This document shows positions 4,940-47,168 of a stretch of 49,799 bases of DNA, piece by piece. Location: positions 1-49,799 of IMG/VR virus record IMGVR_UViG_3300004806_000004; one strand, given 5' to 3'. Each line of letters starts with the position of its first letter. Position 1 is the stretch's first letter. The stretch comes from a virus (Duplodnaviria; Caudoviricetes). Under the pieces are notes generated by a model. The model did no database searches. It saw nothing but the letters and a program-made list of their open reading frames with translations, and had not been told where the DNA came from. The translations under genes were made by a program, and so were the position numbers.

Positions 4940-4955
4940 AGCAAGGTTCATGCCA
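4940..4955 (-). promoter_or_regulatory. sigma54 -24/-12 promoter for the capsid operon
   Basis: Minus strand reads (T)TGGCATGAACCTTGCT(A), i.e. GG-N10-GC. Intergenic and facing the capsid gene. Confidence 0.85.
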
Positions 4956-4969
4956 AGTGTCAGTTAACG

Positions 4970-6202
4970 TTAACGAGTGGGAATACCTTCTATAGAAAAG
5001 GTAGATGGAATACCCTTACGTTTAGCTGCTCCATCTGTGGCCCCAGACCGATCAGACGAAGGTTCAACTAGGCGCTCTTCGCTCTTCTTAACTGTCGCCA
5101 CTTTACTCTGTGTTTGCAGCTGGCGCAACTGTGCACTTTGGATTTGCAGAGCTACAAATAGGTTAGCTGCAACGTTAACGCCGGGGGTATTGGCGAGGTA
5201 ATCAGGGAAGAGAGATTTGAAATCTTGAACGACTTCCCTAACCTTCTTCTCACCCACACCATCAACATCTAATGTATGGTCAAGTAGAGTTTGATCTGCT
5301 ACCCAAGCGAACCTATTGCGTTGTTCGTTCTCGATAGCTTGAAGATCCTGTATAATTTGCTTTGAATGATTAACTTGATATTGACTCAACTCACCAACAA
5401 AACGTTGTTCAGCTTGTTGACAAGCCATAACATTGCCCTGCAATCGAATTTCGTCTCGGTCAGTTGGCATACGTTCCTCAGACATGACAGGGCGACCATT
5501 GGTATCAAATCCTGTGATCTCACGATACTTCTTCCCAGCACGGATATCGAGTAATGCTTGTTCCCAAATACGACCTTCAACCTTAGCTCTGGTAGTTTTC
5601 GTTTGCAACTCTTGAAATTTCGGTGACAGAACGTATGCCTGTTCGTGTTGGAGGTAGGATGCGTCTTTCAGCTTCTCCAATGACTTACGTTCATCAAGCA
5701 TCTTCACCACACGCTCACGTGCTTTCTTAGACATATTCTTCAACATATCTTGCTCATCAGCAGCATACTTCGTATAGTCAAACACGTCCTGCTCTCCGCC
5801 CTGACCATCCTTCTTAACAGGTGAGATTTGCGTAATCTTCTTACTCGCAGTCTCATCTTTCTTCCCTTCGGCAGCTGTAGCTGGGGCGGGTGTAGAATCA
5901 GATTTAACCACCACCGCTGGATCGACCGCAGACTCAGAAGACTTAGGTTTATCAGGATCAACAGGTTTCGACTCATCCTTCGTTGCTTTAGAAGACTCCG
6001 GTCCAGTAGTTTCAACCTTAGTCGGTACCTCAGCAATAGGCTTCCCATCAACTTTAACCTCAGTTAAATCCCGTTTAGTCTCAACTAACGATGGATCAAA
6101 GTTAAATGTCTGACTCTTCACACTCTCCGGAATCTCAACTGGTTCTGAGAATGGAGGGGTGATGTTGTTTGCTTGTCCTGATTGTTTAAATGGCTCACTC
6201 AT
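4970..6202 (-). CDS. Capsid scaffolding protein (putative)
   Basis: Disordered charged/Pro-rich N-half and helical coiled-coil C-half, located between portal and capsid. Confidence 0.7.
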   Translation of the reverse strand: MSEPFKQSGQANNITPPFSEPVEIPESVKSQTFNFDPSLVETKRDLTEVKVDGKPIAEVPTKVETTGPESSKATKDESKPVDPDKPKSSESAVDPAVVVKSDSTPAPATAAEGKKDETASKKITQISPVKKDGQGGEQDVFDYTKYAADEQDMLKNMSKKARERVVKMLDERKSLEKLKDASYLQHEQAYVLSPKFQELQTKTTRAKVEGRIWEQALLDIRAGKKYREITGFDTNGRPVMSEERMPTDRDEIRLQGNVMACQQAEQRFVGELSQYQVNHSKQIIQDLQAIENEQRNRFAWVADQTLLDHTLDVDGVGEKKVREVVQDFKSLFPDYLANTPGVNVAANLFVALQIQSAQLRQLQTQSKVATVKKSEERLVEPSSDRSGATDGAAKRKGIPSTFSIEGIPTR

Positions 6203-6212
6203 ATTATGTCAT

Positions 6213-6515
6213 TTACTGTTGTTTAGGTTTGTTTGATTCAGCCTTAGCTACGAACTCACTTGTCGTCGTAACTAGCGCTAAAATTGTATCAATAGTTTTG
6301 ATTCCATAACTGTACATACGGAACATTTCATTCGGTACAGTTGAATCGATCGAATACCCCGCTAGTGCACGAGTGTACTTCTCTCTCAGATCTCGCATGT
6401 GAGAGATCATCTGAGATGTTACTGGATGACCCAGCCATTCAGTGTGTTGTAATGTCAACACTTGATTGATGTCGAACTGTGGCTTGTGCGGAGTAAATTC
6501 TACTTCTGAGTTCAT
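6213..6515 (-). CDS. Small hypothetical protein between portal and scaffold
   Basis: 100-aa ORF coupled to the portal stop codon. Confidence 0.65.
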   Translation of the reverse strand: MNSEVEFTPHKPQFDINQVLTLQHTEWLGHPVTSQMISHMRDLREKYTRALAGYSIDSTVPNEMFRMYSYGIKTIDTILALVTTTSEFVAKAESNKPKQQ

Positions 6516-9077: not shown

Positions 9078-10871
9078 TCAGTATTTACGAGTTGTTAAGA
9101 GGCGGTTTCTGTTGTAGTCTGACACAGCCTCATGTATGTCTGACATATCTGGTGTTTCGATAGATGGATCTGGGCGGGTGGAAGATGGAATTAACGATCT
9201 CTTCGCCCATTCTCTCATATCAAAATCATGCGTAATCTCTGGTTTCGTTTTATCCTCAGGGATAACAAACGGTATCGGTGCAGACTTCTCTTCCTCAGGA
9301 AACTTATATCCCCAGAATGAGAGGTTGAAAGCATCCGCCCGATCCGGCGAAGGGTACCCTCTACTACGCTGCTCTTCCTTCGTCAACAATTGATGTACGT
9401 TCTTAGTTGAGATTTTATAGTATCTACCACATAACTGCGTTATGAGTAACCTATCATTCATCACAATGATCTCACCCTTCTCAAACAGTAAGCGAGTATT
9501 GAAGAATAGTTCTGTCGCACGATTGAAATAGACTTTCGGATCCCTGGCTGATGAGCGAGAGTCAATCAATCTTATATTACTCCACCCTTCTCGTTTGAGA
9601 CGTACTAATGTAGGTTTGCCTATGCCAGTTGCATCTCCGTAGATCAGAGCCTCAGGATGGTTCAGATCGTATTGATTGAATTTCTGTCTCAGATACTCTA
9701 CCATATCCTCAGAGTTATCGAAACGAAATGCCTCTTGTGCGATCTGTTTATTACCATTCCTCACGCTCAGTACTGTCTCCGCTCCACCGTCAGATAAATC
9801 TAATCCTGCTGTATTGAAAGGTTGCTTAAACCATCTCTCATTCTTTACAGCTTTCCAGACGTATTGTGACGGTATTACCACCTTCTCGTCAGTCGAACCG
9901 AACTCTGCCATCATCGACGAAAGGAACGTAGAGTTGTTCCTCCCACCAGGGAGTTTAGATGCCATACGTTCTGCCTCAGACTCGGTGATATGGGGGCAGT
10001 CTTTGTACGTTACTTTATAGAGTATTTGTTGAGATGATGTGGTTTCTTTAATGTTGTTTAACGTATCCCTTGGTACAGCAGTTTGACATACGTTATAGAA
10101 ATATCCAGACTGTATTCCCGGCGATGAGCAGTCTACTCGGTGAGTGAATCCATGGCAACGTTCTAATGCTTCGATGATTGGTTCAGGAATAGATTTCGTC
10201 TCTGATGTGAAGATGCACATCTTCCTTCCAGCAGATGCAGGGTGAAAACCTTCCGCCTTTCCAGGTTCATCAGTAGCAAATAACTTAATACAAGATGGTA
10301 ATGGTTCACCATATTTACCCCTATGTCCGAACTCATAGTACCTATCCTGAACCTTCCACACTGGACCTAAAATAGCGTTGGCTTTATTGGTTAGACGATC
10401 TATGTGGGCGCCAGTTTGACTATCCAACTGTTGGCCAGACGATGATGTGATAGGTATTTCACACTCAACGTATCTCATTGCCGCCCAGACTGCACACGCT
10501 GCTATGACATATTTGTCCTTGCCGGAACTGTTACACGCCTGTACTACAGCTTGAAAAGGGCTCTCTTTCGTGTGTGATCCATTCGCAAAGTCCATCATGA
10601 ATCTTATTTGCCAATCATGCAACCTTGCTCTTCCAGCTAACAGATCTTCATCTAGTAGAAACAGCAACTCTACTGGATCTTTGATATCTACGCCATCTAC
10701 TCCTAATCGGTATTCTTCCACAGGTGCAGGTGACAAGGCTGCATCTTTAACTGGACCAGTGGAGCAGAACACTGGTGAAGGTTCAGTCTGTGGAAGAGCC
10801 GCTGCGGCATACTCAGCATTGAGTTGTTCCGCAAGTTCTTCAGGAGTTAATGCTACGTTAGTGTCAACCAT
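9078..10871 (-). CDS. terL: Terminase large subunit
   Basis: LHDWQ Q-motif, Walker A-like ACNSSGKD, Walker B-like CIFTSE, coupling motif CSSP, and RNase H-like nuclease motifs AGLDLS, YGDATGIG and SPDRADA. Confidence 0.9.
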   Translation of the reverse strand: MVDTNVALTPEELAEQLNAEYAAAALPQTEPSPVFCSTGPVKDAALSPAPVEEYRLGVDGVDIKDPVELLFLLDEDLLAGRARLHDWQIRFMMDFANGSHTKESPFQAVVQACNSSGKDKYVIAACAVWAAMRYVECEIPITSSSGQQLDSQTGAHIDRLTNKANAILGPVWKVQDRYYEFGHRGKYGEPLPSCIKLFATDEPGKAEGFHPASAGRKMCIFTSETKSIPEPIIEALERCHGFTHRVDCSSPGIQSGYFYNVCQTAVPRDTLNNIKETTSSQQILYKVTYKDCPHITESEAERMASKLPGGRNNSTFLSSMMAEFGSTDEKVVIPSQYVWKAVKNERWFKQPFNTAGLDLSDGGAETVLSVRNGNKQIAQEAFRFDNSEDMVEYLRQKFNQYDLNHPEALIYGDATGIGKPTLVRLKREGWSNIRLIDSRSSARDPKVYFNRATELFFNTRLLFEKGEIIVMNDRLLITQLCGRYYKISTKNVHQLLTKEEQRSRGYPSPDRADAFNLSFWGYKFPEEEKSAPIPFVIPEDKTKPEITHDFDMREWAKRSLIPSSTRPDPSIETPDMSDIHEAVSDYNRNRLLTTRKY

Positions 10872-11274
10872 TTATCTGCCCCTTTACGGTTGTAGCCATC
10901 TCACGAACTCGTTTCATTTGTTCGTTAATCATGAAGATGTTTGTCTGTTGATTAGCGAACCCTTTCACCACCTCTTTCCTGCCCTTCTTATCATCACGCA
11001 CATACGTAGCAGCAGCAAGACGAACCTTCTCATTCTCGGCTGACAATGCTAATGCCATGATAACTTCATTCACTCGTTCTAGATCATCGTTAGAGAAGTT
11101 CAACCTATCTTCTGATTCAGGCTCCTGTCCACAATCCTTTCTGTATTTACTTGACACCTGCATCAAACAAGCCTTGACAGAGGCAACCTCTAGACCCCTG
11201 TCAGAAGCGATCTCATCAGGTAGCATAGATTCATTCTCATATGCTACTTTTATGGCTTTGTGTTCTGCTGTCAT
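10864..11274 (-). CDS. Terminase small subunit (putative)
   Basis: HTH-like N-terminus (PDEIASDRGLEVASVK) and an ENEKVRLAAA helix. Overlaps the terL start. Confidence 0.65.
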   Translation of the reverse strand: MTAEHKAIKVAYENESMLPDEIASDRGLEVASVKACLMQVSSKYRKDCGQEPESEDRLNFSNDDLERVNEVIMALALSAENEKVRLAAATYVRDDKKGRKEVVKGFANQQTNIFMINEQMKRVREMATTVKGQING

Positions 11275-11292
11275 ATCCTATTGGGCGCTCAA

Positions 11293-11589
11293 TTAAACCT
11301 TCTTGGCTAATTCTCGCATTTTGCTGATGTTCCCATTTATCACTTCATCAGTGATTTCTTCATCCATTTTCGCATACGATTCTTGCTGTTTGAACATTTG
11401 AGTATATCGAATCGCAGCATGTAACCTATCGAGTGCTTCTTTGTCCATTGTATTCTCTACCGGAACATCTGCCCGATCGTAATAGATACTCAATTTATTT
11501 GCCAATTTAACCTTATCAATTTTGCGTCTCTGAACGTTGTTCGGGACAGCGCCCCCTTTGGCAGATGATGGAATAATGATATTACTCAT
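11293..11589 (-). CDS. Hypothetical protein
   Basis: Start trimmed to the ATG at 11589 (MSNIIIP). The upstream extension looks non-coding. Confidence 0.55.
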   Translation of the reverse strand: MSNIIIPSSAKGGAVPNNVQRRKIDKVKLANKLSIYYDRADVPVENTMDKEALDRLHAAIRYTQMFKQQESYAKMDEEITDEVINGNISKMRELAKKV

Positions 11590-11658
11590 ACAACCTCCAC
11601 AAACGATACCACCCCATTCCACGCAGCCATTACCACCCCATACGCCGCACAAACCGAA

Positions 11659-11829
11659 TTAACTTGTTTTGTGTCTTGATTCATAGTCTATTTTATGTGC
11701 TTGTTTTAGTGTCTCGCGAATCTCCCCTAACCTACGTCTCACCATAGGTGTCGCCCTCGCTCCCAGCCTCACTATCATATCCCTCTCGCTCCTCAGTCTT
11801 TCATATTCATCTGCGGTTAGGATTCGCAT
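11659..11829 (-). CDS. Small basic hypothetical protein, first gene of the packaging operon
   Basis: ATG at 11829 (MRILTADEYERL) lies just downstream of the sigma54 promoter at 11846-11861. Confidence 0.5.
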   Translation of the reverse strand: MRILTADEYERLRSERDMIVRLGARATPMVRRRLGEIRETLKQAHKIDYESRHKTS

Positions 11830-11845
11830 AGTCGTATATCGATAT

Positions 11846-11861
11846 AGCAACAATTGTGCCA
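11846..11861 (-). promoter_or_regulatory. sigma54 -24/-12 promoter for the terminase/portal operon
   Basis: Minus strand reads (T)TGGCACAATTGTTGCT(A), at the head of the minus-strand arm. Confidence 0.85.
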
Positions 11862-12059
11862 ACTGTCGCGCAGCGAAATATAAAGGGTTTATATTGCACA
11901 TCCGCTTATTGATTTTGTAAATTTTCTGAGAGAGGTATAGTTGCGATGAGCCTTCGACCTTCTGGTTTTCCATTAGCCAATCTAATATCCCTTGGCTATC
12001 ATTAGCTCTACTGAACAAGTGAAGCTACTATTAGCTGCTCTATCATTAGATATGGTTAA

Positions 12060-12590
12060 TAATCGCTCCTATCATTATGCCAGCTGAATAAGGGTAATAC
12101 ATTAGAGTATATAATGGTACATATAATGACCGGGCTAGTCGTATATCAGATTGATATAACAGACCCCTTATTAGTATATGTATAACCTCGTTATCTCTTT
12201 TTCCCCAAAAATTGAAAATTATATTAGATAATATAATAGCTAATAATAATAATAACTAATATAGTATAAATATGTATATACTAATAACATGGATGGTGTA
12301 TTGGGGGAGATATAAGGGGATATATGATATACGACTATGATGGTAGATTATAGGCTAGTAAGCGGGATTGGCTAATTATCAGGTGATAATGTGATTATCA
12401 GGAGATAAATGGGCGTGAAAGGTTGGATTATCACGTGATAAATGATTGTGTCCTATTATGGGACGTATATTTAACGATAAAACATTGGGGAATCCAATAA
12501 TGGGACAGTAGGTGTCAAGGAATGGGACAGTTGGGAATTGTGGAAATGAGCTTTATCGTTATTCATTGGCAAATACGCATATTGGGACGT
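12060..12590. other. AT-rich non-coding control region (candidate origin and/or genome end)
   Basis: No ORFs in the track, a very AT-rich tract at ~12205-12290, palindromes and TGGGAC repeats, between the divergent arms. Confidence 0.55.
12375..12442. promoter_or_regulatory. Three operator/enhancer-like palindromes ATTATCA-NNN-GATAA
   Basis: ATTATCAGGTGATAAT (12375), ATTATCAGGAGATAAA (12394), ATTATCACGTGATAAA (12427). Confidence 0.65.
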
Positions 12591-12606
12591 TGGCATGGTG
12601 GGTGCT
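12591..12606 (+). promoter_or_regulatory. sigma54 -24/-12 promoter at the head of the early arm
   Basis: (T)TGGCATGGTGGGTGCT(A), GG-N10-GC, upstream of the first + strand gene. Confidence 0.7.
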
Positions 12607-12785
12607 AAGGATTCGGTAGTTCTTTGAAATCAGTTTGCTAGTTGGCACGTTACTCGGTAGTGTAGTGATACATTTCCCGAACAGATACAGCTAGTTTAAC
12701 GTTGTTAGTGCGATTCACTTTACTGGTGAATATAGGCGATAACTGCCATAATGGCCGCCCAATAGTCACCAGTGATACAAACAAC

Positions 12786-13277
12786 ATGAGCACGAGCACG
12801 AGCAACGATCAAACCGCATCTATTAACAACATCCCCAAAGTGACAATCGGTAAGTTTGGCGACGGACGCTACAGCCCCCTTATGGCGGAAGTATTCGACA
12901 GCCTCCAAACATGCCTCGGCATGGATGAAGGACTGGCCGACAGCCTGGCCCGTAAGATTGCATCTGATTTCGGTGCAATCATGTCCAATGGTCAGATTGG
13001 GTTATCGAAGGTGTCGCTCGGCAAGGTGAGCAAGAAGGATTCTAAGCTCACTGTTAAGGAAGCTGCAACCAAAGTAAAGGGTGTATCCCTTAGCCATCCG
13101 TTGCTGTTACTGAAAGCTGTCTGCTACTTCGGCGAGGCTGGTGTTAATGGGGTTAGTTATGGCAATACCAAATTCAAGCTTACTGATAAGCTTGCCGATT
13201 GGGTTGCCGAACAAAAACCGACCGTTGGTTCAACCAAGGTTGAACAAGCGGACGAACAAGCGGACAAGAAAAACTGA
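12786..13277 (+). CDS. Hypothetical early protein
   Basis: ATG at 12786 follows the A/C-rich leader TACAAACAAC. The gene is followed by a long hairpin. Confidence 0.75.
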   Translation: MSTSTSNDQTASINNIPKVTIGKFGDGRYSPLMAEVFDSLQTCLGMDEGLADSLARKIASDFGAIMSNGQIGLSKVSLGKVSKKDSKLTVKEAATKVKGVSLSHPLLLLKAVCYFGEAGVNGVSYGNTKFKLTDKLADWVAEQKPTVGSTKVEQADEQADKKN

Positions 13278-13282
13278 TAGAA

Positions 13283-13339
13283 CACGCGAGACTCTGCATG
13301 AGATAAAACTTGTGCGGAGTCTCTCCTATTTCCCGCGTG
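13283..13339 (+). terminator. Long RNA hairpin (terminator or processing site)
   Basis: 15-bp stem GAGACTCTGCATGAG/CTTGTGCGGAGTCTC with G-U pairs, enclosed by CACGCG/CGCGTG. Confidence 0.6.
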
Positions 13340-13843
13340 ATCTTTGACAAATTATGAGTATAGATATTATCGTCGCTATTGTGACGCAATCGAAAGATTG
13401 ACACCTAATATCTATCCATCCGAAATAAGACCCAACTCTTATCTATCTAGCAAGATAACATCTTATCCATCCCAAGTGGAAGGTAGAGACTTACTATTTA
13501 GGCTCATTAAGAGACATGATAAATAGGGTATCTGTGCAATGAATCTATGCAACACAGACAGACAATCCGTAAGCGGTAGCAAACTTACTTTTGAGAAGTA
13601 TTGGCACGCAATAGCGGGGTATGTGACCGTTGAGTCAGTTGTTAGTTAAACGTTAGTCATCCATCCCAATATAGTCGCCAAACTTAGTAAGATAACAGTA
13701 CCGTGATATTATGGACCTGACAGTTGAATCTAGCCTTTATTCGCCGTGCGAATGACGACAGTGATAAGCCTGTGTAATAGAGAATCAAACTGTGAACAAC
13801 TTAACAATACCGCTCACGCCTAGTGCGCAAGTGTAGGACCAGT

Positions 13844-14080
13844 ATGAATCCATCACCTAAACAACTGCATGAAGAGAAGATGCGTCTAAATGGCATTGTT
13901 CATGCTAGACGCAATGCGCCCAAATGGCGATGTGCAACCCGTAAACATGCGAAGAATGCAACTAAACAATTCTTCGGTAAAGACGCTAAACATGTGAGAT
14001 GCGTAGTAGAAGCGGGGATGGAAACTGTGTATAACAGACCATCGTATCAAATGCCGTTGTATAACATTCGGAACAAATAG
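13844..14080 (+). CDS. Small basic hypothetical protein
   Basis: ORF from the ATG at 13844, ending 9 nt before the next gene. Confidence 0.45.
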   Translation: MNPSPKQLHEEKMRLNGIVHARRNAPKWRCATRKHAKNATKQFFGKDAKHVRCVVEAGMETVYNRPSYQMPLYNIRNK

Positions 14081-15140: not shown

Positions 15141-15184
15141 ACAATACAATCCCGTTATCGATATCGTGCTTACGTCCTATCCGT

Positions 15185-15200
15185 TGGCACGATTTTTGCT
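15185..15200 (+). promoter_or_regulatory. sigma54 -24/-12 promoter (consensus match)
   Basis: (T)TGGCACGATTTTTGCT matches TGGCACG-N4-TTGCW exactly and is intergenic. Confidence 0.9.
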
Positions 15201-17299: not shown

Positions 17300-17309
17300 T
17301 GAATACCAT

Positions 17310-17325
17310 TGGCACGATTCGTGCT
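17310..17325 (+). promoter_or_regulatory. sigma54 -24/-12 promoter for the helicase/ligase/activator unit
   Basis: (T)TGGCACGATTCGTGCT(A), 10 nt after the upstream stop codon. Confidence 0.85.
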
Positions 17326-22277: not shown

Positions 22278-23186
22278 ATGGCAAATGACAAAGTGCAGAA
22301 GGTTCCGACAGAGGCAGAGTTACGTCTGTTCCTCAAGAACGGAATGAAAGATCTAGTTCAGCAAGTGTTAGACATCGCACCGGACTTACGCTTGAAGCTA
22401 GAGAAGAACGGTGGTAGGTTTCCAGACGAAGGCGAGTGGGTACTAGTAGAACTGCTCTCCGGTGCATCAGCATGGCTTAAGAAGTTCATCACTTGCGATA
22501 GTGACATGATCGAGATGAAAGAAGATGTCAAGAAGCTTGCTGTGTGTAATGATGAGGTACTGATCACTGGTGAGACTGGTACTGGGAAAGAACTAATCGC
22601 TCGGGCCTTACATGGTGATAGGGAGGGCGACTTCAAACGAATCAACTGTGGAGCAATGCCAAGTGAACTAATTGAATCAGAACTGTTCGGTCACGTTAAA
22701 GGTGCGTTCACTGGAGCAGACAATAACAAAACTGGATTACTAGTTGCTGCGAAAGATGGTACAATGTTCCTCGATGAGGTAGGGGATCTGCCATACACAT
22801 TGCAAGCGAAACTACTCAACGCATTACAGCCTATTGATGGTAAGCGATTCATCCGTCCGGTAGGGTCAGTGAATGAAGTTGAGATCAACTGTCGCATAGT
22901 CGCAGCGACACATAAAGATTTGCGTCAGATGTTTGAGTGTAATCAATTCAGGAAAGATCTTTATGCTCGACTGTCCACATTCGAGATTCATATCTCCCCT
23001 CTATCGAAGCGAGTAGGAGATGTTGAGCCTATCGTGCGTGAACTCTGTGCCCAGATGGGTGTAGATTACATCAAAGTAATGGATGGCATTAGTGCCAAGT
23101 CACTCAACAAGACTCTCGACCTATCGTTCAATGTACGTTCACTTGAACAGATGGTGAAGCGGTACAGAGTCTTAGGCAAGCTATAA
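22278..23186 (+). CDS. sigma54-dependent transcriptional activator (bEBP AAA+ domain) lacking receiver and HTH domains
   Basis: GETGTGKE, INCG, ESELFGHVKGAFTGA, GTMFLDEVGDLP, RIVAATHKDL, FRKDLYARL and FNVRSLE. The protein ends about 12 aa after sensor II. Confidence 0.95.
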   Translation: MANDKVQKVPTEAELRLFLKNGMKDLVQQVLDIAPDLRLKLEKNGGRFPDEGEWVLVELLSGASAWLKKFITCDSDMIEMKEDVKKLAVCNDEVLITGETGTGKELIARALHGDREGDFKRINCGAMPSELIESELFGHVKGAFTGADNNKTGLLVAAKDGTMFLDEVGDLPYTLQAKLLNALQPIDGKRFIRPVGSVNEVEINCRIVAATHKDLRQMFECNQFRKDLYARLSTFEIHISPLSKRVGDVEPIVRELCAQMGVDYIKVMDGISAKSLNKTLDLSFNVRSLEQMVKRYRVLGKL

Positions 23187-23212
23187 CGGTAAAGCTAATA
23201 AGATGTTATACT

Positions 23213-23228
23213 TGGCACAAGACCTGCT
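23213..23228 (+). promoter_or_regulatory. sigma54 -24/-12 promoter for the recombination/replication unit
   Basis: (T)TGGCACAAGACCTGCT(A), 26 nt after the activator stop. Confidence 0.85.
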
Positions 23229-38147: not shown

Positions 38148-39581
38148 TTAATAGGGAGATTCAGTCCAATATTTATAAGGAGTTCCAATCAAGGCATCTC
38201 CAGCAGCAGAGCCTAAATCACGCATAGGCTGGCCACCAGTTCCAACATCGTAGAGAGTGTTCAATGCAGTGTTGCCAACAATCCCAGCTCTTGATGCACC
38301 GTGATTGGCTTTCAATTCTTTCTGACGCTGCTCAATGCGAGCTAACATAGCATCATGCTCAGCTTTTTTCTGTTTTAATTCCGCTTTTTGTGCTTCTAAT
38401 GCTGCCTGTGCAGCTTCATGTCTATCTTCTAGATGATTCTGCACATCCTCAATAGTCGCATTAGGATTCATGATTTGAGGAGTGACTGTACGAGGAGCAA
38501 CAGGTTGCGGACCTTTAGACGGAGGGGCAGGATAAGCTGCTCCAGAAGGAAAGGGCTTACCATCAGGGCCGGTGTTGACAACTGATGGGGCTCCATTAAG
38601 TTGACTAGACATTAACTCAGATGCAATACCTTGCTGAGTTCTAACTCCAGGAGTAACGTGACCGCCAGATGGAATAAGATTTCCATTCTCATCATATGAC
38701 ACTTGAAGGGGAGTCATAGCAGTTGTGTCAGCAGCATGAGCAGCGTCATAATTGTTGTGAGTGTTGATCATCGCCTGAGTGCCGAAATTGACAGGCTGTT
38801 GATTCTTTTCAAACAACAATCGAGAGTTCTCAAGACCAGCTCCAATCAACCCGTTAGCAGACTGTAATCCCTGAGTATTAACATCAGTTGGAGTATTGCG
38901 TAATGCACCAGCAACCAACATATTATTACGCAGGTTAGTCATTGGTACTGTATGCTGCTGATTCCAAGCTTCATTCCCATACATAGCAGATTCATAGTCC
39001 TGCTTAACTGGCTCAACATTTAACTGACGGTTAATCGCATTCTGATTGCCCAGCACTCCCGCTTGAATTCCAGATGACCCGCGTTGACCAACTAATCCAC
39101 TACTCAACTGACCTGCTGCTTCGGTATCGCCAGCTAGAACAGGAGCGGAGAGTTTATCGTTCATCAATGAACGAACCATCTGTTCATGAGCCATTTGATC
39201 AGGAGACTTTCCAACCTGACCAACTAATAGACTGTTCTGTCCTTGCTGATTCTTGAAATACGACGACCAAGGATTGAGACTAGGATCCATTCCGTTTACC
39301 GTGGATTCAATACCCGCCCTTTGACGAGCAAGCTGACGTTGAGCATTAGCATCTAACAACTGTTGCTGTGTGGCATTTTGCGCCTGAGCAAGAGCAGCAC
39401 CAGTATTCTGGTAATTGTATATGTCCGCTGCCTGTGGTGACAGTGCTCGGGCAATGATACTAGGATGATATACCTGACCCTTCTCATCCATAAATTGATG
39501 AGTATCGGGGTTGTATGACAGTTGACCTGGACCAACAGCATTGCCTAGTGCTTGTAATCCTATATTTGCGAAGTATCCCAT
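38148..39581 (-). CDS. Internal virion/ejection protein (putative)
   Basis: Gln/Asn/Gly-rich with a coiled coil. Called by position. Confidence 0.6.
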   Translation of the reverse strand: MGYFANIGLQALGNAVGPGQLSYNPDTHQFMDEKGQVYHPSIIARALSPQAADIYNYQNTGAALAQAQNATQQQLLDANAQRQLARQRAGIESTVNGMDPSLNPWSSYFKNQQGQNSLLVGQVGKSPDQMAHEQMVRSLMNDKLSAPVLAGDTEAAGQLSSGLVGQRGSSGIQAGVLGNQNAINRQLNVEPVKQDYESAMYGNEAWNQQHTVPMTNLRNNMLVAGALRNTPTDVNTQGLQSANGLIGAGLENSRLLFEKNQQPVNFGTQAMINTHNNYDAAHAADTTAMTPLQVSYDENGNLIPSGGHVTPGVRTQQGIASELMSSQLNGAPSVVNTGPDGKPFPSGAAYPAPPSKGPQPVAPRTVTPQIMNPNATIEDVQNHLEDRHEAAQAALEAQKAELKQKKAEHDAMLARIEQRQKELKANHGASRAGIVGNTALNTLYDVGTGGQPMRDLGSAAGDALIGTPYKYWTESPY

Positions 39582-39593
39582 AATAGTATTTAG

Positions 39594-40199
39594 TTAATCG
39601 GCATAACCGAAAGCATCTTCTGTTTCAGCGGGTTTACCGATGGTTGATGTCTTAGCTTGATCAACTAATTTCTGAGCATAACCATCAGCGCTCTTGCCGC
39701 CTGTTCCATTCCCAGCACCGATAGTCGCGAAAGCAGGGTTAGCTCCAGATGATTGAGAGTTGATACCAGCATGAATTTGTGCTTCAGTAGTATGGTTGCC
39801 TTGTCCGACTATTGTGTCTTTAAAGTCATCTTTCATTTTATCAAACGCTGCACCCAATCGACCACGCCGGAGCGTCGATCCGTCAGCAGAAGCACCAGCA
39901 TCCTGACTCTGTTTTGCCTGTCCCTGAGATTGGGCAACACTCTGACCGATGAGCTGAGAGTTGTCTTCTATTGTCCCAGGAGCCAGTCCAGCTGCACTAG
40001 ACTGTAAGTGATTCATACCGTGTTGAGTGAGGGGAGCGAATCCATCTGCATCACGCTGACCATAATGAACTCCAGCCTCAAAGCCGAAAGGATTAGATAG
40101 CTGGGCGAGCTTATTCGCTGCAACCATCTGTCCAGGAGAAGCATCTGCTCCACCCTGATATGGTGACATTGCATTAAGATAATCAAGCGTGGATGCCAT
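39594..40199 (-). CDS. Internal virion protein (putative)
   Basis: Ala/Gly/Gln-rich. Called by position. Confidence 0.55.
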   Translation of the reverse strand: MASTLDYLNAMSPYQGGADASPGQMVAANKLAQLSNPFGFEAGVHYGQRDADGFAPLTQHGMNHLQSSAAGLAPGTIEDNSQLIGQSVAQSQGQAKQSQDAGASADGSTLRRGRLGAAFDKMKDDFKDTIVGQGNHTTEAQIHAGINSQSSGANPAFATIGAGNGTGGKSADGYAQKLVDQAKTSTIGKPAETEDAFGYAD

Positions 40200-41337
40200 A
40201 ACGAGTAGTTAGAGTTTTGACCATCTTGGTGTAGGCGAGAGTGGCGTAGGAGGCTTTGCCATTACGTATATAACCGATACAACGTTGGACAACTCCCCAA
40301 ATGTATTCTAGCTCCTCAGGATTGTTCTGAATACATTGAGTGATCGCCGGTGCGAGACGGTAGTACTCTTCCACAATATGCTGTGGGACGTGTTTGTCAC
40401 GAAACTTACGGAGAGTCTGTAACTCGTCACAATCATCCGGTAGACCCTTATAGTCACACGCAGCGGTGGTGAGGAAGCATCCAGCAGATGCATTACCAGA
40501 CGATGTTGTACCTTTCGACGCCGCGCCAATACCAGCTAACTGATTACCAAACGATGATGCGAATGAGAATGGTGTAGACGTAGTAGAGTTAGCCTGTGTG
40601 GGATTGAATTGAGCTAATCCGAAGTTATTGGCTGTATTACCAGCCCCAGCAGCAGTAGCCACAGGATTGAATGTAGCATTCTGTGCTCCTGAAACATTAG
40701 CAGCCGTTCCTAGAGCTGAACCTAACATCTGACGTTTAGTGTTCAGTGCATTGCCGAAATTCATTGCATTTGATACAGCATTAGTAGCGTTATCTACTCC
40801 CAGATTGCCTGTGGCGTAGTTAGATTGATTGAGCGAACGCTCAGCCGCAGCCTGTTCACCACCACTCAAACCATTGAGATTGATGGAGTTCACCAAATTC
40901 GCTGCTTGACCATTGGCAGCAGCCTGTGCTGGATTGTATTGATTAGCTAGCGCAGCTGCTTGTTGATCAACAGCTGCTCCACCATTAGCAAGAAGACCAG
41001 CCTGACTGTTGGCCTGCATATTCGCCAATGCTGCCCCAGCCTGTTGATAGTTACCTGATTGACCAGCGAGCTGATTCAGTACTGATTGGGTATAAATAGG
41101 GTTAGCTCCATACGCACTAGCGGCCATTGACTGGGTAATCCCTGGACCAGTATTAGCTACAATCTGTGATGTCGGAGATACAGCCTGAGCATACAACGCA
41201 AGCATATCTTGTGGAGATAGCTGAGGGGTGGTGGACCCAGAAGATTCTCCAGCACCGCCTGAGTAGTATCGGGTAGCTAATAGATGAGGCCTAAAAGGAA
41301 GATTGTTCTCAAATTCACTTGCGTAAAAGTTTCTCAT
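40183..41337 (-). CDS. Pilot/ejection protein with C-terminal CFI-box-CTERM-like domain
   Basis: Ala/Asn/Gln/Gly-rich body followed by CFLTTAAC...ELQTLRKFRD...YYRLAP. Start at 41337 is preferred. Confidence 0.7.
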   Translation of the reverse strand: MRNFYASEFENNLPFRPHLLATRYYSGGAGESSGSTTPQLSPQDMLALYAQAVSPTSQIVANTGPGITQSMAASAYGANPIYTQSVLNQLAGQSGNYQQAGAALANMQANSQAGLLANGGAAVDQQAAALANQYNPAQAAANGQAANLVNSINLNGLSGGEQAAAERSLNQSNYATGNLGVDNATNAVSNAMNFGNALNTKRQMLGSALGTAANVSGAQNATFNPVATAAGAGNTANNFGLAQFNPTQANSTTSTPFSFASSFGNQLAGIGAASKGTTSSGNASAGCFLTTAACDYKGLPDDCDELQTLRKFRDKHVPQHIVEEYYRLAPAITQCIQNNPEELEYIWGVVQRCIGYIRNGKASYATLAYTKMVKTLTTRYGIHA

Positions 41338-41674
41338 AGATTTTATCGGTATTAGGGTTTTTGTAGATCCCATTCTTCATCCAACGCAATTTCGCTTTGG
41401 GCCAACGCTCTTTCGCAATCTTAGCAAAAGCTCGTAAATTTTCAATGTTCATCGCCAAGTTTTCTGTGATAAACAACTCCTGCTTAGGTTCATCAAAGTG
41501 AGCAATAATCATGCCAGAGATATTGCCTGTATCGTTAATGGAAACCAACAATAGTCCATGTTCGTATGCCTCACGTATGAGATACGCAACTTGTAGAGGG
41601 TTCTGATTTAGGAAACACTTCCCGCCCTTGTTGCGTAAGACAAAGTTAACTACGTCGCCTAGTGATAGGTTCAT
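41315..41674 (-). CDS. Small tail-module protein, possibly GNAT-fold (T7 gp13-like position)
   Basis: 119 aa from the ATG at 41674, with the alpha/beta pattern LLVSINDTGNISGMII. Located between tail and ejection genes. Confidence 0.45.
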   Translation of the reverse strand: MNLSLGDVVNFVLRNKGGKCFLNQNPLQVAYLIREAYEHGLLLVSINDTGNISGMIIAHFDEPKQELFITENLAMNIENLRAFAKIAKERWPKAKLRWMKNGIYKNPNTDKIYEKLLRK

Positions 41675-41678
41675 ATGC

Positions 41679-42656
41679 TCAACGTCCAGTAATGCGATAA
41701 GCATATCTCCAATCTCGGCCGAAGCCAATTCGAGGGTTAATCTTATCGTGAGGATTCTCTACTAATGACACGTGGTCATTAGTTCCTCTGTTAGCATCTT
41801 CATGTATTTGCGCGAGCAACATAGTACTCTTCTCTTGATAGCCCATCGCCACCTGTAGATTGGATTGTTGCTCAAACCATAATTGGAGAGATTTATTAAT
41901 GATAACGTCATCGTATCCAGGAGCAGGGAACTCATCTGAATCGTTGCTGAACGTCGGCAAGGCCTTCTTATACAGCACCTCAACCCAACCGATAACTGGA
42001 TCACTATTCGGAGGGTACCAAGGAGCAGATGAAACATCAACAATCTGGAACTGGGCGGCCAGTTTGTTATTCGCGATCTTTGATAACTGATTGCCATCAA
42101 CATCAAATAACAACACGTCTTGAGTATTAACAGTTGATTTAGTGATAGAGGTGATAGTATTGTAACTATTCACACTCATCACAGAAGTAGAGTTAATCAC
42201 CACTGTCTCATGAACTGATGACGCAGTATCAGTAGAGCCGACAATAGTCACCTGAACATTCGGTGTCTCTACTGCTCCAACTGTAATCACAACCTGCGAT
42301 TGGTTGTGAATACTCATCATCAAACACGACAAGCCTTTCAATCTCCAATTCCTCCACTCCTGATCTCCCCAAGCAAACTGATTGTAGTGGGGGCGAAGTT
42401 GAGATAGATTAACAGGTATCTGCGAGTACGACTCACGCATCGCTCTAATTTGGCCGACGTAATCTGGTAGTGCAATAGTCTGATCTGCATTAACCTTTAG
42501 AATCATTTCATCCAACGACCCTGCCATATCAGAGGTTTGATAAACCTCTTTCGCAGCAGGATTGATGAAACGGAGTAACGTTGCACGTTGATTCGTATCA
42601 GATGGATTGAGGCCCAACTTATAGCCAACTTGTTGTAAAATATATTGTAAGCTCAC
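41679..42656 (-). CDS. Head-tail adaptor / tail tubular protein A-like
   Basis: N-terminal helices (LLRFINPAAKEV), IALPDY and the C-terminal P.YDDVII pattern of phage adaptors. Confidence 0.65.
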   Translation of the reverse strand: MSLQYILQQVGYKLGLNPSDTNQRATLLRFINPAAKEVYQTSDMAGSLDEMILKVNADQTIALPDYVGQIRAMRESYSQIPVNLSQLRPHYNQFAWGDQEWRNWRLKGLSCLMMSIHNQSQVVITVGAVETPNVQVTIVGSTDTASSVHETVVINSTSVMSVNSYNTITSITKSTVNTQDVLLFDVDGNQLSKIANNKLAAQFQIVDVSSAPWYPPNSDPVIGWVEVLYKKALPTFSNDSDEFPAPGYDDVIINKSLQLWFEQQSNLQVAMGYQEKSTMLLAQIHEDANRGTNDHVSLVENPHDKINPRIGFGRDWRYAYRITGR

Positions 42657-44440
42657 GATTGAGAGATACTCGATTGAGTAGTTAAGGGTTGCATGGGAGT
42701 GTAATCAATAGTGCCGATACTCACCGTATTGAGTGATGCTCCACCAGTCCATGATATAGCGACACAGGATTTCCATCCTTGAGATGCTTCAACGAACGAG
42801 AATAGAATGGAGTTAGTTTGAGTACCAATGTCAGTACCGACAGACTGACCAGTATAAATATTACTCGGCGCACTATATCCGATCTTCGATATGAGAGTTT
42901 CATCGTATCTATTATTGGTGAATAATGATACTGACACATCACACTCTTGTGTAATGTTAGTCATAATCACTCGACACTCAGACACTTTCAGTTCTTTCTT
43001 CGGGTTGAGATTACAAACTGAACCGAGTCGGATGTAAGCTTTATCATACGCAGTAGCGGCGTAAAGTTGATACAGATAATCGTCGGTAGTTATAGCAAAC
43101 AGATTCAATCCAGAGATAGTATTCGCTGCAAATTGTTTAGCTCCAGCACCATTGAGTTGAGCTATGTCGAGAGATTGATAACAACTATTGACCGTATCAT
43201 ACACCAACAATCCGTACCCGAGAGTCGTATTAACTCCGAATATAGCGTAGTTGTCGAAATAAGTTGCACAGACGGCCCCATCCACTTGTGTCAACCCTTT
43301 GAACAAGCCCTGAACATTAGCTGAGAATATGCCATTACGTCCTTCATTGCCCTTATCAACTGATGCTGCCGCCATAGAACGAATACCGTTAGCGTCGATG
43401 AATAGTGTATCAGTAGTGCCACTCGCCGATGGAATATCAATTATCCCCCTCTCATTAACGCAAGACGCATTAAACAGAACCTGTCTGTTGAACGTGTATT
43501 CACCAAACAATGTGGGTGCCGTAGGGGACTGATTAAGTGTAACCAGAAACATACCACCCCCACCAGCGGATACCAACAATCCACTATTCGGCAATGCGTG
43601 CAACGCTGTAATTCCACCGACACCCACTGAGTAAGAGGTAGTAGTTGCGTCTCCACCAGCCTGTCCCACTGGGGTAACATTCACCACAAAGTCCAATGGC
43701 CGCCCAGATACAGATCTGTATATGTTGGTATACGCAGAATCAACTATAAACAATATGCCATTGTACCACTCCATATATGTACCGACCGGTACATACTCAC
43801 GCAAATCTGGACCTGTGGATGTACCGTCAGTCCCGATGTTGGGATTCCATTGTGCATACGTTTGAGTCTGTCTGGCAGCAATCTGCCCAGATCCATTGAT
43901 ATAGATGAACCAAGGTTGAGTAGTACCATCTTGCACTAACACCCCAGAATAGTTTCCGTAGAGAGATGCAGCATATTGAGCCTGTTGAATCTGGATAATC
44001 GGCTGATTTGCTTGTGCTGTGGTTATAGGACCAGTAGTAGGCTTCGTCGCGAATCGAGCATAGTTGGTTGTGTTCAACGGCACTACCACCGTCCAAACGC
44101 GAGGGGCAGACGCATTGACTTTGAAGTTAGTTATGAGATACCAACCAGACGTTCCTATCTGTCTGTAGAAAGCATAACCAGCTACGAAAAGGAGTAGGTA
44201 ATTGCCGAACACAACCAACCCTTGCTTAGTTCCGCTGGGGGCAGAATAATCTATTACTGATGATTGAGTGGGGGTAGCTATATCGAATCTCGTCCGGCAG
44301 TTTAAACCTAATCTGTACTGATTGTATGTTACATCATACACACTATCACCTTCCTTATATTTGATTGATACAGGAAGGCGTGTGTCATCTAGTAGGTAAT
44401 TCATCCCACCAGAAAATGATGTCTGTTTGAATTCGCTCAT
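42653..44440 (-). CDS. Tail nozzle / tubular protein B-like
   Basis: Starts with QTSFSGGMN, has beta-propeller-like composition and is 595 aa long. Confidence 0.7.
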   Translation of the reverse strand: MSEFKQTSFSGGMNYLLDDTRLPVSIKYKEGDSVYDVTYNQYRLGLNCRTRFDIATPTQSSVIDYSAPSGTKQGLVVFGNYLLLFVAGYAFYRQIGTSGWYLITNFKVNASAPRVWTVVVPLNTTNYARFATKPTTGPITTAQANQPIIQIQQAQYAASLYGNYSGVLVQDGTTQPWFIYINGSGQIAARQTQTYAQWNPNIGTDGTSTGPDLREYVPVGTYMEWYNGILFIVDSAYTNIYRSVSGRPLDFVVNVTPVGQAGGDATTTSYSVGVGGITALHALPNSGLLVSAGGGGMFLVTLNQSPTAPTLFGEYTFNRQVLFNASCVNERGIIDIPSASGTTDTLFIDANGIRSMAAASVDKGNEGRNGIFSANVQGLFKGLTQVDGAVCATYFDNYAIFGVNTTLGYGLLVYDTVNSCYQSLDIAQLNGAGAKQFAANTISGLNLFAITTDDYLYQLYAATAYDKAYIRLGSVCNLNPKKELKVSECRVIMTNITQECDVSVSLFTNNRYDETLISKIGYSAPSNIYTGQSVGTDIGTQTNSILFSFVEASQGWKSCVAISWTGGASLNTVSIGTIDYTPMQPLTTQSSISQS

Positions 44441-45849
44441 TAGAGGTATTCAGTGATTTCAATCCCCACATTGGCTTGCATAGTAGGCGTAAATGTACTG
44501 GAAGCAAATCCAAATGCAAAATCCATACGTGTAGTTTGACCTGACGTAATCTTATAAATAATATCAGGAAACAATATGCCAGTGCTATTGCCGCTCCAAG
44601 TTGTGCTAATCCATGTCACAACAGCTGTAGCGTATCCACCTGAGAATGTAGCGGTTCCAGAAGGATCATAGAATAAATTGACTCGACTATTATCAGCTGA
44701 ACTGTTAGTCATAACTATGCCAGAAACTCGAATTACCAATGTAGAACTGGCTGAGATGGGGACAAAATTGGTAATCTTAATGACAGTAGAGATCTTGCCA
44801 TTTGTGTAAGATGTACCATTATTCCCTGCATTTCCAGCTTCACTTGATGTGTTGGTTACAACCACTCGTTGCAAGATTCGTCCAATGGTAGCACCAATAC
44901 CAGTAGCCAAACTATACGTTGTACCACCGGCAGCTACCTTTAAGTATTGATCATATGTCTGTGATGTGGGCTCAGCGAGATTCAATAGTGCCCGTTGGAT
45001 GGTAACGAATCCACGTTTTGACGTAGTGGCATTGTATGATATTCCCAGCACATCTCCGGGCGCGGATGCATTTGTGCTACTGCCAGCACCGGGAATACCA
45101 ACAATAGACGTAGTTGGGACGAGAATATTTAACCCGGGATCAACAGCACCTGTGCCACCAGCGGTAGTGGCTACACCACTATTCGTCACTAACTGAGCAG
45201 CTGTGATAGTGTTATTAGCGATATTCGCAGCTGTAATAGTGCCCAACGCTAGTTTGCCAGCCACACCAGTTTGAGATTGAGCGAGCAGATTTTGCCCAGT
45301 CACTACCCCAACAGCAATAGTAGGCGATTGCAGCTGAGTCCCAGCACCAGACGCTCCACCTGCAAGATCACCAAAAACAAGTGACGTATTGTTCATGTAT
45401 CCATTAGATATATAAGTAGTGTTGTAATTGTTAAGTACTGCCGCTGTTGGCCCACCAGTAACCTTACTCCAGTCTAAAGAAGTAATAGCAGATGATGGAA
45501 CAGAGTTAGTTATTAACGCATATCCAGGAATGGTTTGAGATCCATATGATGCAGATGCGATAGTTACCCAGTTGTAGTAGGTAGAATCAGGAGATGAAAG
45601 ATTGGGATTCCATACATACGGAGTAACAAAGGATGCACCAATACGAAGCCAAATGTAGTTCTTCCATTTAGTGGTTATATCAGCACGAGGTACGTTAGGT
45701 GCTCCTGAGTTGTCGCTTGTAACCACAACCAGACCCTTATCTGCATAAGGTGTGGCCTGATTAACTTGCTGAGTTAGCTGGGCTCCAGTTATAGTAGTTG
45801 AGCTAGTAGAGTCAAATCCAGTTATAAAATCTTGTGTTGATGCTGACAT
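44440..45849 (-). CDS. Tail fibre protein (putative)
   Basis: ITGAQLTQQVN head, GTITAANIANNTITAAQL shaft repeats and a GRILQRVV...IEITEY tip domain. Confidence 0.7.
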   Translation of the reverse strand: MSASTQDFITGFDSTSSTTITGAQLTQQVNQATPYADKGLVVVTSDNSGAPNVPRADITTKWKNYIWLRIGASFVTPYVWNPNLSSPDSTYYNWVTIASASYGSQTIPGYALITNSVPSSAITSLDWSKVTGGPTAAVLNNYNTTYISNGYMNNTSLVFGDLAGGASGAGTQLQSPTIAVGVVTGQNLLAQSQTGVAGKLALGTITAANIANNTITAAQLVTNSGVATTAGGTGAVDPGLNILVPTTSIVGIPGAGSSTNASAPGDVLGISYNATTSKRGFVTIQRALLNLAEPTSQTYDQYLKVAAGGTTYSLATGIGATIGRILQRVVVTNTSSEAGNAGNNGTSYTNGKISTVIKITNFVPISASSTLVIRVSGIVMTNSSADNSRVNLFYDPSGTATFSGGYATAVVTWISTTWSGNSTGILFPDIIYKITSGQTTRMDFAFGFASSTFTPTMQANVGIEITEYL

Positions 45850-45854
45850 AAATA

Positions 45855-47141
45855 TTAATTGGTTGTTGAAACAGAGTTTGAGGGGAAGGTTAACGGTAAT
45901 GCAAAGGCTGCTTGATTGTACTTAGAACCTAAGTAATTAAGAATTGCCTGTCTAACTGGACTTGTAAAAGGATTCAATGTTGTTGGCTGATAGATCAATA
46001 TCTCAGCAACTTTCATAGGTTGAGTATTGGTAGGTGCCATAAGCGGTTCACCCAGACCGAATACACTCATAGCAGGCTGTCCTGTCATTGAATGAAGTGT
46101 TAATGTTGGCTCTGTTGCATACGAACTGACAGGCAATAAATACCCTCCAGTATCCTGTACTTGAACATTATACCACAGAAACAAAATATACCATTGACCA
46201 GTAACAGGATTAGCCGTTCCCCCTAACGTAGCTCCATTATATGTGAATGGTGAGTATCCATTGGTAAGTACCTTCAAATCAGATGCTGAAAGTGCAGATG
46301 AACCAAAACCAAAAACTTGAGCGCCAACAGCTGGTGATGTACCGGTTAGTTGGATAACCGCAAATACTCCATATGCAGTTGTGGTGGGTGAATAAGTAAA
46401 AGATGGACCACCTTGATTAGATGAAACAGGGAAATAATAGTAATTATTTATCACACTGTCCGTTGCGGATGCTCCCCAAGGAGTGAAAGACAAGAACTCA
46501 TTGGTTGAATTGGTGTCAAAGAATTGGCCAGTTCCGGCATTAGGATTAATAGCAGACGCTATATATTGTCCAGTTAATATGTTGGTTGACGGTACTGATT
46601 GAGGATTAAATCCATTACTATCAGTAAACACACTAACTTGTCCATCATTCGCTTTCAACACACTATCACTCGCATACCGATAGTCCTCAGCCTGTAAGAC
46701 AGATGTGGTGAAATCAATATCGGTAGATTGGGTCGCATTACCTTGAGATGTATTCCAAATCTCGAATCTACAGTTCTTCAGTATTACCTGTCCAGTATAC
46801 GCCGGAATCGCTAGGTTAATTACTTGCCCCGAGGCTGACCACACAACATATCGAGTTACAATATTCCCAACTCTATATGCGATGCAGAGTGTATAATTAA
46901 CTCCCGATGGAGCAACAATAAGTTTGAGAGAGAAGTTGTTAGGTGCCTCAAAATTAAATGCAGCTACAATATCCGAGACACCTAACCATGATTTGGTGGT
47001 TGTAAATGCTGGGAGTATTAAGAATGTACCAGCACGACTCAGTGGACTGATAGGGTTAATGTCTAGCCACCGCTGCAAATAGCGAGGGACAGTAAATGCT
47101 CCTGTATCATTTGCAGGCGGTGGTACTAATGGATATGACAT
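45855..47141 (-). CDS. Virion protein with C-terminal LamG/ConA-like domain (putative)
   Basis: GQWYIL...KVAEILIY...RQAILNYLGSKY pattern. Confidence 0.55.
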   Translation of the reverse strand: MSYPLVPPPANDTGAFTVPRYLQRWLDINPISPLSRAGTFLILPAFTTTKSWLGVSDIVAAFNFEAPNNFSLKLIVAPSGVNYTLCIAYRVGNIVTRYVVWSASGQVINLAIPAYTGQVILKNCRFEIWNTSQGNATQSTDIDFTTSVLQAEDYRYASDSVLKANDGQVSVFTDSNGFNPQSVPSTNILTGQYIASAINPNAGTGQFFDTNSTNEFLSFTPWGASATDSVINNYYYFPVSSNQGGPSFTYSPTTTAYGVFAVIQLTGTSPAVGAQVFGFGSSALSASDLKVLTNGYSPFTYNGATLGGTANPVTGQWYILFLWYNVQVQDTGGYLLPVSSYATEPTLTLHSMTGQPAMSVFGLGEPLMAPTNTQPMKVAEILIYQPTTLNPFTSPVRQAILNYLGSKYNQAAFALPLTFPSNSVSTTN

Positions 47142-47152
47142 AACACTTTGTC

Positions 47153-47168
47153 AGCAGTTTCTGTGCCA
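47153..47168 (-). promoter_or_regulatory. sigma54 -24/-12 promoter for the tail/ejection operon
   Basis: Minus strand reads (T)TGGCACAGAAACTGCT and occupies most of a 36-bp intergenic gap. Confidence 0.85.

Follow-up and report, generated by a model that had tools for sequence, protein, structure and literature searches.

The window analysed here, a stretch of 49,799 nucleotides, is a complete circular phage genome of ~49.7 kb, its circularity following from a 90-nt overlap shared by the window ends. Seven strict TTGGCAY-N6-TGCT sites, which the sequence-only reading had taken for RpoN -24/-12 promoters at operon heads, were all recovered where it had placed them, and each points toward the next gene. 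On the minus strand, a site scoring 24.7 bits (4940..4956) precedes a putative major capsid gene (3458-4783, minus strand), another (11846..11862) heads the terminase-portal-scaffold block, whose first ORF starts at 11829, and a third (47153..47169) lies before ORF 45855-47141; the ATG of this ORF falls at about the predicted +2, so its message would be leaderless. The plus-strand sites stand before the first rightward (early) gene (12590..12606, 17.6 bits), before a small-gene cluster (15184..15200, 22.1 bits), at the head of a block of helicase, ligase and bEBP genes (17309..17325), and just past the bEBP stop, where the site heads the exonuclease, dNMP kinase, Sak4, PolA and primase block (23212..23228).

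Dropping the requirement for the 5' T brings in two further co-oriented sites inside ORFs. The eighth, which the earlier reading did not have, occupies 41501..41517 (minus strand, 18.1 bits) within ORF 41315-41704 and precedes ORF 40183-41373, while the ninth and uncertain one (ATGGCAT-N6-TGCT, 13890..13906, plus strand, 17.2 bits) lies upstream of small genes, within a 78-aa ORF that is not conserved. The statement that all sites lie outside coding sequences therefore holds for the seven strict sites and fails for the regulon as a whole. The intergenic position of the 11846 site is borne out by homologues of the adjoining ORF (54-77 aa, 4 relatives), which align with a start at 11829. Because the genome is circular, all genes sit downstream of some co-oriented site, in agreement with the genome-wide coverage claimed earlier, with the holin/peptidase block (47178-49705) reached only via read-through over the join.

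Some of the gene labels attached to the sites are weaker than first given, the site positions themselves being sound. The capsid assignment draws on where the gene lies, on its conservation and on an ESM Atlas lead; the protein had no match in Pfam, PHROG, NCBIfam or solved structures, and none was found among 50,697 phage records. The portal label comes from a weak PF23899 match at E 0.0025, the terminase label from a top solved-structure match, also weak, at E 0.007, and family searches with the 'tail/ejection' genes gave no match.

A chance origin of the sites is ruled out by simulations and a matrix scan. Markov simulations of orders 1, 2 and 4 (60 each) yield 0.07-0.10 hits per genome with a maximum of 2, confirming the asserted rarity, and changing the spacer to N5 or N7 leaves 0 and 0 matches in the window; a matrix trained on relatives only finds 9 window sites of at least 16 bits against 0.13 expected. 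The seven strict sites, and at least eight in all, are likely to be sigma-54-type promoters.

The bEBP-type AAA+ protein (22278..23186, plus strand, 302 aa; PF00158, E 5.6e-56) carries a Walker A motif of the GxxxxGK[DE] type (98-105), an exact GAFTGA in loop 1 (142-147), Walker B (163-167), an R-finger region (225-232) and sensor II (285-289). Its predicted model resembles the AAA+ domains of FleQ, NtrC1 and PspF, and the structure search put its identity to the central domain of FleQ at 39%. No C-terminal HTH, the DNA-binding domain of bEBP groups 1-4, was seen in the Pfam scan or in the structure model, and the protein stops 17 residues past Asn285 of sensor II; in 31/34 loci where this could be measured, bEBPs of the family end 17-26 residues past that motif. 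Across 64 parsed loci, loop 1 reads GAFTGA in 19, GSFTGA in 30, GSYTGA in 8 and otherwise in 4, with 3 unparsed. Searched with the bEBP sequence alone, viral contigs returned no relatives; a bEBP alignment recovered them. GenBank phage matches to the protein were mostly host-contig-like records, and MT121960, with one 14.3-bit site, was dropped. The bEBP gene is inherited with the genome core and is present in every complete relative: each of the 13 near-complete relatives reached via the capsid encodes it, no family member lacking it was found, and its identity correlates at 0.55-0.83 with that of five core genes.

Among 37 related phage records chosen via the minimal bEBP, which share descent and include some near-duplicates, there are 256 sites (3-11 per record), whereas the counts are 0, 2 and 0 in three viral records whose bEBPs are of the ordinary full-length kind with an HTH, and the reversed pattern gives 10 sites in total over all 40 records. 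At 80 bEBP loci the N6 spacing accounts for 159 sites, against 4, 5, 5 and 11 at N4, N5, N7 and N8. Comparable numbers of matches inside coding sequences or antisense to genes had been named as the outcome that would overturn the promoter interpretation; 145 of these 159 sites are intergenic and 5 lie antisense inside ORFs. A de novo search of intergenic regions returned GGCA-N7-TGCT as the top dyad (106 against 3.5 expected, 18/18 genomes). Positions that played no part in selecting the sites also match sigma-54 preferences, with T before TGGC in 80/128 and a purine after TGGCAY in 123/128.

Site position is conserved to different degrees. The capsid site (4956) is common to 19/19 genomes and 55/80 capsid loci, with 55 sense and 0 antisense sites upstream of the gene, and the site past the bEBP stop (23212) recurs in 19/19 genomes within 700 nt of that stop, in 14 of them within 62 nt. 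The 17309 site is found in 18/18 genomes no more than 750 nt from the homologue of the gene at 17486, and the packaging-block site (11862) in 16/18 within 1.1 kb of the homologue of 10864-11274. The tail-side positions are retained less often (41517-41501 in 9/19 genomes, 47169 in 5/16), and the small-gene region around the 15184 site is variable, with 0-5 such sites in relatives. As a control, nine internal genes, the bEBP gene included, are preceded by a site in 0/19 genomes. In 8/18 genomes, judged by eye, no site of at least 14 bits precedes the first rightward ORF. One marine group keeps the bEBP and has only 2-3 strict sites, none of them before the capsid gene, and another group has 0-1 strict sites and uses TGGCAY-N6-AGC instead.

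At GG-N10-GC elements the sigma-54 holoenzyme settles into a stable closed complex whose melting requires ATP hydrolysis by a bEBP ring, and transcription from such promoters starts some 12 nt past the GC. We consider it probable, at about three chances in four, that host sigma-54 polymerase uses the phage sites and that the HTH-less phage bEBP opens these promoters independently of enhancers. The earlier proposal of RpoN promoters combined with a phage bEBP gains support from the spacing, direction and conserved position of the sites, from the motif recovery and from the intact ATPase domain. AAA+-only activators are described in PMC3844500 as acting on numerous promoters from solution. Initial low-level transcription might come from host bEBPs, from leak or from a weak sigma-70 promoter, after which the 17309 operon would yield the activator; with a sigma-54-type promoter in front of this operon too, the activator would boost its own production by positive feedback. 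Next it would switch on the replication block (23212), the packaging genes (11862), the capsid gene (4956) and the tail-side genes (47169, 41517), and host sigma-54 genes would probably be activated too as a side effect.

A difficulty for this scheme is the start of infection, because the activator gene lies behind a sigma-54-type promoter and sigma-70-like sites are unenriched in the early regions (18 against 11-21 in five simulations). Counts of sigma-70 promoters fall under the shuffle means, at 28 against 34 in 11000-26000 and 31 against 41 in 30000-49799, and the Bacteroidota-type TAnnTTTG is likewise unenriched (42 against 42-56). The more far-reaching version, in which a widespread lytic phage family would transcribe everything between the first gene and the capsid with host sigma-54 polymerase, using no sigma-70 promoter and a self-amplifying AAA+ master switch, is a tentative proposal with the odds somewhat against it. 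If it is true, the host's own sigma-54 activity would gate infection, and the phage protein would be a naturally occurring universal activator of sigma-54, reprogramming the host regulon as well.

FleT acts together with FleQ, which sets a precedent for a host bEBP partner, and the phage protein might similarly activate the sigma-54 promoters with a partner, either a host bEBP or a phage protein, or through an N-terminal tether to phage DNA. Such an arrangement would supply timing and spare host promoters, and a single activator for early and late promoters offers no obvious timing of its own. The ~65-residue N-terminal segment consists of two helices and a hairpin, has a confident fold in the full-length model and is family-specific, with 25 matches in 1.84 billion proteins; 12 of these were checked, and 7 carry a sigma-54 domain, 3 ankyrin repeats and 2 neither. 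Modelled alone, it has a pLDDT of 65; comparisons that covered winged-helix and other known DNA-binding folds gave no Foldseek match at E 0.001, a best VIA Z of 2.8 and no Atlas lead above 0.82. Pfam gave no match to a receiver domain, the N-terminal feature of bEBP group 5. Conservation of the segment is poor (mean column identity 37%), its length ahead of Walker A drops to about 44 residues in a marine group, and no upstream word is common to the promoters. Sigma-54 promoters commonly, if not always, have an enhancer (UAS) 80-150 bp upstream; here no 4+4 dyad shared by the 250 nt before the promoters exceeded shuffles in 19 genomes, a result that leaves room for degenerate or single-promoter enhancers. 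The repeats at 12376-12528, a possible enhancer array, have no counterpart in relatives. A partner or tether appears improbable, at rather less than one chance in five.

Slightly less probable again is that host activators fire the promoters and that the phage bEBP-like protein targets host genes or is a decoy, titrating sigma-54 or poisoning host bEBP rings. The lytic Pseudomonas phage YuA (Yuavirus) depends on sigma-54 (PMC10914365) and has three annotated -24/-12 promoters before virion genes (AM749441), with no Pseudomonas phage among 64 tblastn matches to the bEBP; a phage can therefore use sigma-54 without an activator of its own, and the bootstrap in any case requires some host-driven start. 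YuA additionally has sigma-70 and phage-specific promoters, and scanning it with the phage-family matrix gave no site of at least 12 bits. A decoy would have no need to retain Walker A and B, the R-finger, sensor II and GAFTGA-like loops. Host bEBPs as a rule depend on enhancers, of which no common one was found, and the universal presence of the bEBP gene in complete relatives, inherited with the core, also argues against this reading. That the motif is the operator of a dimeric phage regulator, or another sigma factor's promoter, resembling -24/-12 by coincidence, is suggested by a GCA-N7-TGC quasi-palindrome within it and is very improbable given the strict directionality before the capsid gene, the sigma-54 preferences obeyed by unselected flanking positions, and the absence of any detected sigma factor, RNA polymerase or HTH regulator across 59 ORFs.

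Returning to the enhancer-independent phage activator, its parts are textbook. As described in PMC3844500 and PMC7175178, the NtrC, PspF and FleQ systems have the same GG-N10-GC spacing with TGGCAY and TGCW halves and the same clade-6 AAA+ domain with an acidic Walker A tail and GAFTGA loop, and the Salmonella sigma-54 sites mapped by ChIP (PMC3844500) resemble those of the phage family. Unlike in those systems, the sites here are spread on a phage genome over all gene blocks, no common enhancer was found, and the activator has neither an HTH nor a known sensor domain. FlgR, CtcC (group 5), FleT and the engineered DctD250 also lack a DNA-binding domain; DctD250 activates many promoters without an enhancer (PMC3844500), and FleT is named in PMC7175178 as the only known bEBP without both end domains. 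FlgR and CtcC carry receiver domains, the phage protein its family-specific segment, and these four proteins are chromosomal or engineered, whereas the bEBP here is a phage core gene.

Other phages take over transcription through their own RNA polymerase, a phage sigma factor, clamp-coupled late activation as in T4, or antitermination. As in those strategies, a single phage-encoded factor would redirect transcription to phage promoters, but here it would be an ATP-driven promoter-melting activator for a host alternative sigma. No description of a phage core-gene bEBP with a genome-wide -24/-12 regulon was found in the open-access literature, as judged from listings. If the reading is true, it represents a distinct takeover route, in which the phage contributes the ATPase that melts promoters for an alternative sigma of its host, rather than a polymerase, a sigma factor or an antiterminator. 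With this family, natural activators that have neither sensor nor enhancer can be set beside FleT and the engineered DctD250. Recognition of the -12 element can be studied in the AGC-type subclade as an experiment done by nature, and the motif also allows operons to be mapped in this phage family, of which no member is in culture.

Most of the stretch is contained in sequencing runs of freshwater DNA from a single year, with no RNA runs among those listed. Shine-Dalgarno-like words occur upstream of only 73/514 conserved genes, which narrows the host without naming one. The sole GTDB match is a 4.6-kb contig binned in a Terracidiphilus MAG, which is too weak for a host assignment.

The capsid leader (4864..4928, minus strand) contains two tandem RNA-like units, each with a GCYWCT-like box, a short spacer and a hairpin with an AGGGCA loop. 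Rfam gave no match at the gathering score, only noise, and the whole leader folds no better than shuffles (z -0.62). The GGCA...GC occurrences in the leader were rejected by eye as extra -24/-12 sites because their spacing varies. The first unit begins at the predicted +2, and in the 47 capsid leaders with both features the conserved hairpin element overlaps the promoter in none and begins at predicted +2 to +5 in 23.

The sequence-only reading had reported seven TTGGCAY-N6-TGCT sites, candidate promoters of the sigma-54 (-24/-12) type, and all of them were found where it had placed them: 4956-4940 (-), 11862-11846 (-), 12590-12606 (+), 15184-15200 (+), 17309-17325 (+), 23212-23228 (+) and 47169-47153 (-). 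Their claimed rarity by chance held as well, with 0.07–0.10 matches per simulated genome versus 7 in the window, where the same half-sites with an N5 or N7 spacer occur 0 times; tolerating one mismatch gives 11 sites versus 1.79 expected (100 shuffles). A matrix made solely from 128 sites of 18 relatives detects nine window sites of at least 16 bits versus 0.13 expected (15 simulations), namely the seven exact sites, 41517-41501 (-) and 13890-13906 (+). Every site follows the direction of its genome arm, and the start at 11829, on which the intergenic position of the 11862-11846 site depends, is backed by four homologues; for the start at 47141 the homologues open with identical residues.

The promoter reading was also examined in relatives. 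Near the best 80 of 197 loci encoding a bEBP (bacterial enhancer-binding protein) there are 159 TGGCAY-N6-TGCW sites versus 4, 5, 5 and 11 at other spacings. Comparable numbers inside genes or antisense to them would speak against promoters; according to a crude ORF call, 145 of the 159 are intergenic, and of those within ORFs 9 run sense and 5 antisense. Over their whole length, the 40 longest of these 80 records contain 258 sites, and the reversed pattern occurs 10 times in them; the 37 picked by a minimal bEBP have 3–11 each, and the three with full-length bEBPs 0, 2 and 0. A search based on the capsid (best 80 of 95 loci, among them near-duplicates and a record whose capsid is identical to that of the window) found an exact site 123–258 nt 5' of the capsid match in 55 loci, with 0 antisense sites and 0 at other spacings upstream of the capsid in all 80. 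Of the further records reached in this way, 19/22 encode a bEBP, as do all 13 near-complete ones. The suggested de novo motif check on intergenic DNA (18 genomes) also came out in favour of the sites, since GGCA-N7-TGCT ranks first among dyads (106 versus 3.5 expected), and its masking leaves AT-rich words and a single capsid-leader word.

In a survey of the window and 18 whole relatives with a threshold of at least 14 bits, positions and not scores count as evidence because the matrix was trained on the same relatives. A site precedes the capsid gene in 19/19 genomes and the bEBP-containing block in 18/18, follows the bEBP stop in 19/19 and precedes the terminase block in 16/18 (6 antisense sites there come from the divergent arm). 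Sites are less regular before the 40183 gene (9/19), the 45855 gene (5/16), the portal (2/19) and the large terminase (2/18), and none lies ahead of any of nine other internal genes. Before the primase, where 3/19 genomes have a site, the window carries a weak one of 14.6 bits (29970-29986 (+)).

The putative activator (22278-23186 (+)) matches PF00158 with E 5.6e-56 and retains GETGTGKE, GAFTGA, MFLDE, the R-finger segment and NVRSL, ending 17 residues past the latter. Its structure model (mean pLDDT 95) consists of a small N-terminal two-helix/hairpin segment and the AAA+ domain, without an HTH, and its top matches are the central domains of FleQ, NtrC1/4 and FlrC. The 120 best-listed homologues are mostly 260–330 aa and all lie on contigs of 55 kb or less. 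Among the 64 of 80 viral loci readable by our motif parser, 57 have GAFTGA, GSFTGA or GSYTGA as loop 1; the tail after sensor II is 17–26 residues in 31 of 34 measurable loci and 100–108 in three ordinary full-length bEBPs. In one relative (G048) a TAG stop falls within the bEBP profile match, which may lie wholly 5' of a shorter start.

According to PMC3844500, sigma-54 holoenzyme forms a stable closed complex on GG/TGC elements that requires ATP hydrolysis by a bEBP, and activators devoid of a DNA-binding domain can be promiscuous, DctD250 activating many Salmonella promoters; activation requires GAFTGA (PMC7175178). No shared word upstream of the promoters was found in any of the 19 genomes, which fits an enhancer-independent activator. 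With its gene behind a conserved predicted promoter, the activator would generate positive feedback. Activity, binding, timing and the phage's host are inferences here. As a source of the first transcription round, no enrichment of sigma-70-like sites was found; a 10-of-12 match is found at 13344, just past a terminator-like hairpin. Phage YuA has sigma-54 promoters (PMC10914365), also present in its record annotation, but, unlike our phage, no bEBP; HTH-less bEBPs are already known from chromosomes (PMC7175178). The parts are known, while their arrangement in a phage is undescribed: the open-access literature (titles and beginnings of abstracts) yielded no paper describing a bEBP encoded by a phage together with a regulon of its own.

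The system is not uniform. An exact site is present in 11/13 near-complete capsid-found records. One subclade (capsid loci L200-L214; records G050, G055 and G056) with a more divergent bEBP has 0–1 exact sites and carries TGGCAY-N6-AGC with the GG-N10-GC spacing kept, the capsid position included; a marine group has 2–3 sites, none ahead of the capsid. Regulon size and the -12 element therefore vary, and the AGC change may mirror a shift in the -12 preference of the host's RpoN. No family member without a bEBP was found.

The capsid leader (window 4864-4928 (-); also relatives' capsid loci L136-L215) holds a conserved tandem RNA-like element, usually in two copies, each made up of a GCYWCT-like box and a hairpin whose loop is of the AGGGCA type and whose stems vary freely. 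It is present in 58 of 72 distinct capsid leaders, and 26 of 27 genome-wide matches to a stricter pattern fall in such leaders; since stems were chosen for pairing, their recurrence, not pair counts, tests the hairpin. Full units occur in 56 leaders, 47 of them with a promoter site. If the C of GC is numbered -12, give or take one or two, the first detected unit begins at +2 to +5 in 23 of these 47 and at +13 to +78 in 24, never at or before +1, which indirectly supports a transcript beginning where sigma-54 would predict. Pairing between box and loop could form a pseudoknot, for which the evidence is mixed. The element, which we take to resemble boxA/boxB, could by analogy be an antitermination site; it has no Rfam match, and no paper describing it was found. 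At 47141-47153 (-) the ATG lies roughly at +2 relative to the predicted start, and the message would likely be leaderless; family genes mostly have no Shine-Dalgarno words, and their leaders are A-rich with T at -1.

The window ends overlap by 90 nt, and the window is therefore a complete circular assembly. Its two arms point away from each other near 12 kb and towards each other at 31.73 kb. The search found no cultured relative, and scanning 59 ORFs turned up no integrase, sigma factor or RNA polymerase. The leftward arm encodes the portal and terminase (weak matches), holin, peptidase and putative capsid (441 aa, highly conserved, identified by position and an Atlas lead). Behind the internal 41517 promoter candidate lies a conserved virion-side ORF (40183-41373 (-)) whose C-terminal domain is CFI-box-CTERM-like (NF041770, 39.9 bits against a cut-off of 40). 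A papain-family peptidase (48101-48934 (-)) adjoins a Pam3-type holin (47178-47798 (-)), possibly an unusual lysis pair. The AT-rich inter-arm DNA contains three palindromes of the TTATCA-N2-TGATAA type, three ATGGGAC repeats and one 12-mer in three copies (12376-12441, 12458-12528; 11829, 12136, 12326), not common to relatives; they may serve as packaging or origin signals, or be bound by a host factor in front of the 12590 promoter. The rightward arm encodes helicase, DNA ligase, PD-(D/E)XK exonuclease, dNMP kinase, Sak4-like protein, split family A polymerase and primase, and, in its early region at 16224-17299 (+), a YdcK-type beta-solenoid ORF and a pyrimidine-dimer glycosylase-like ORF.
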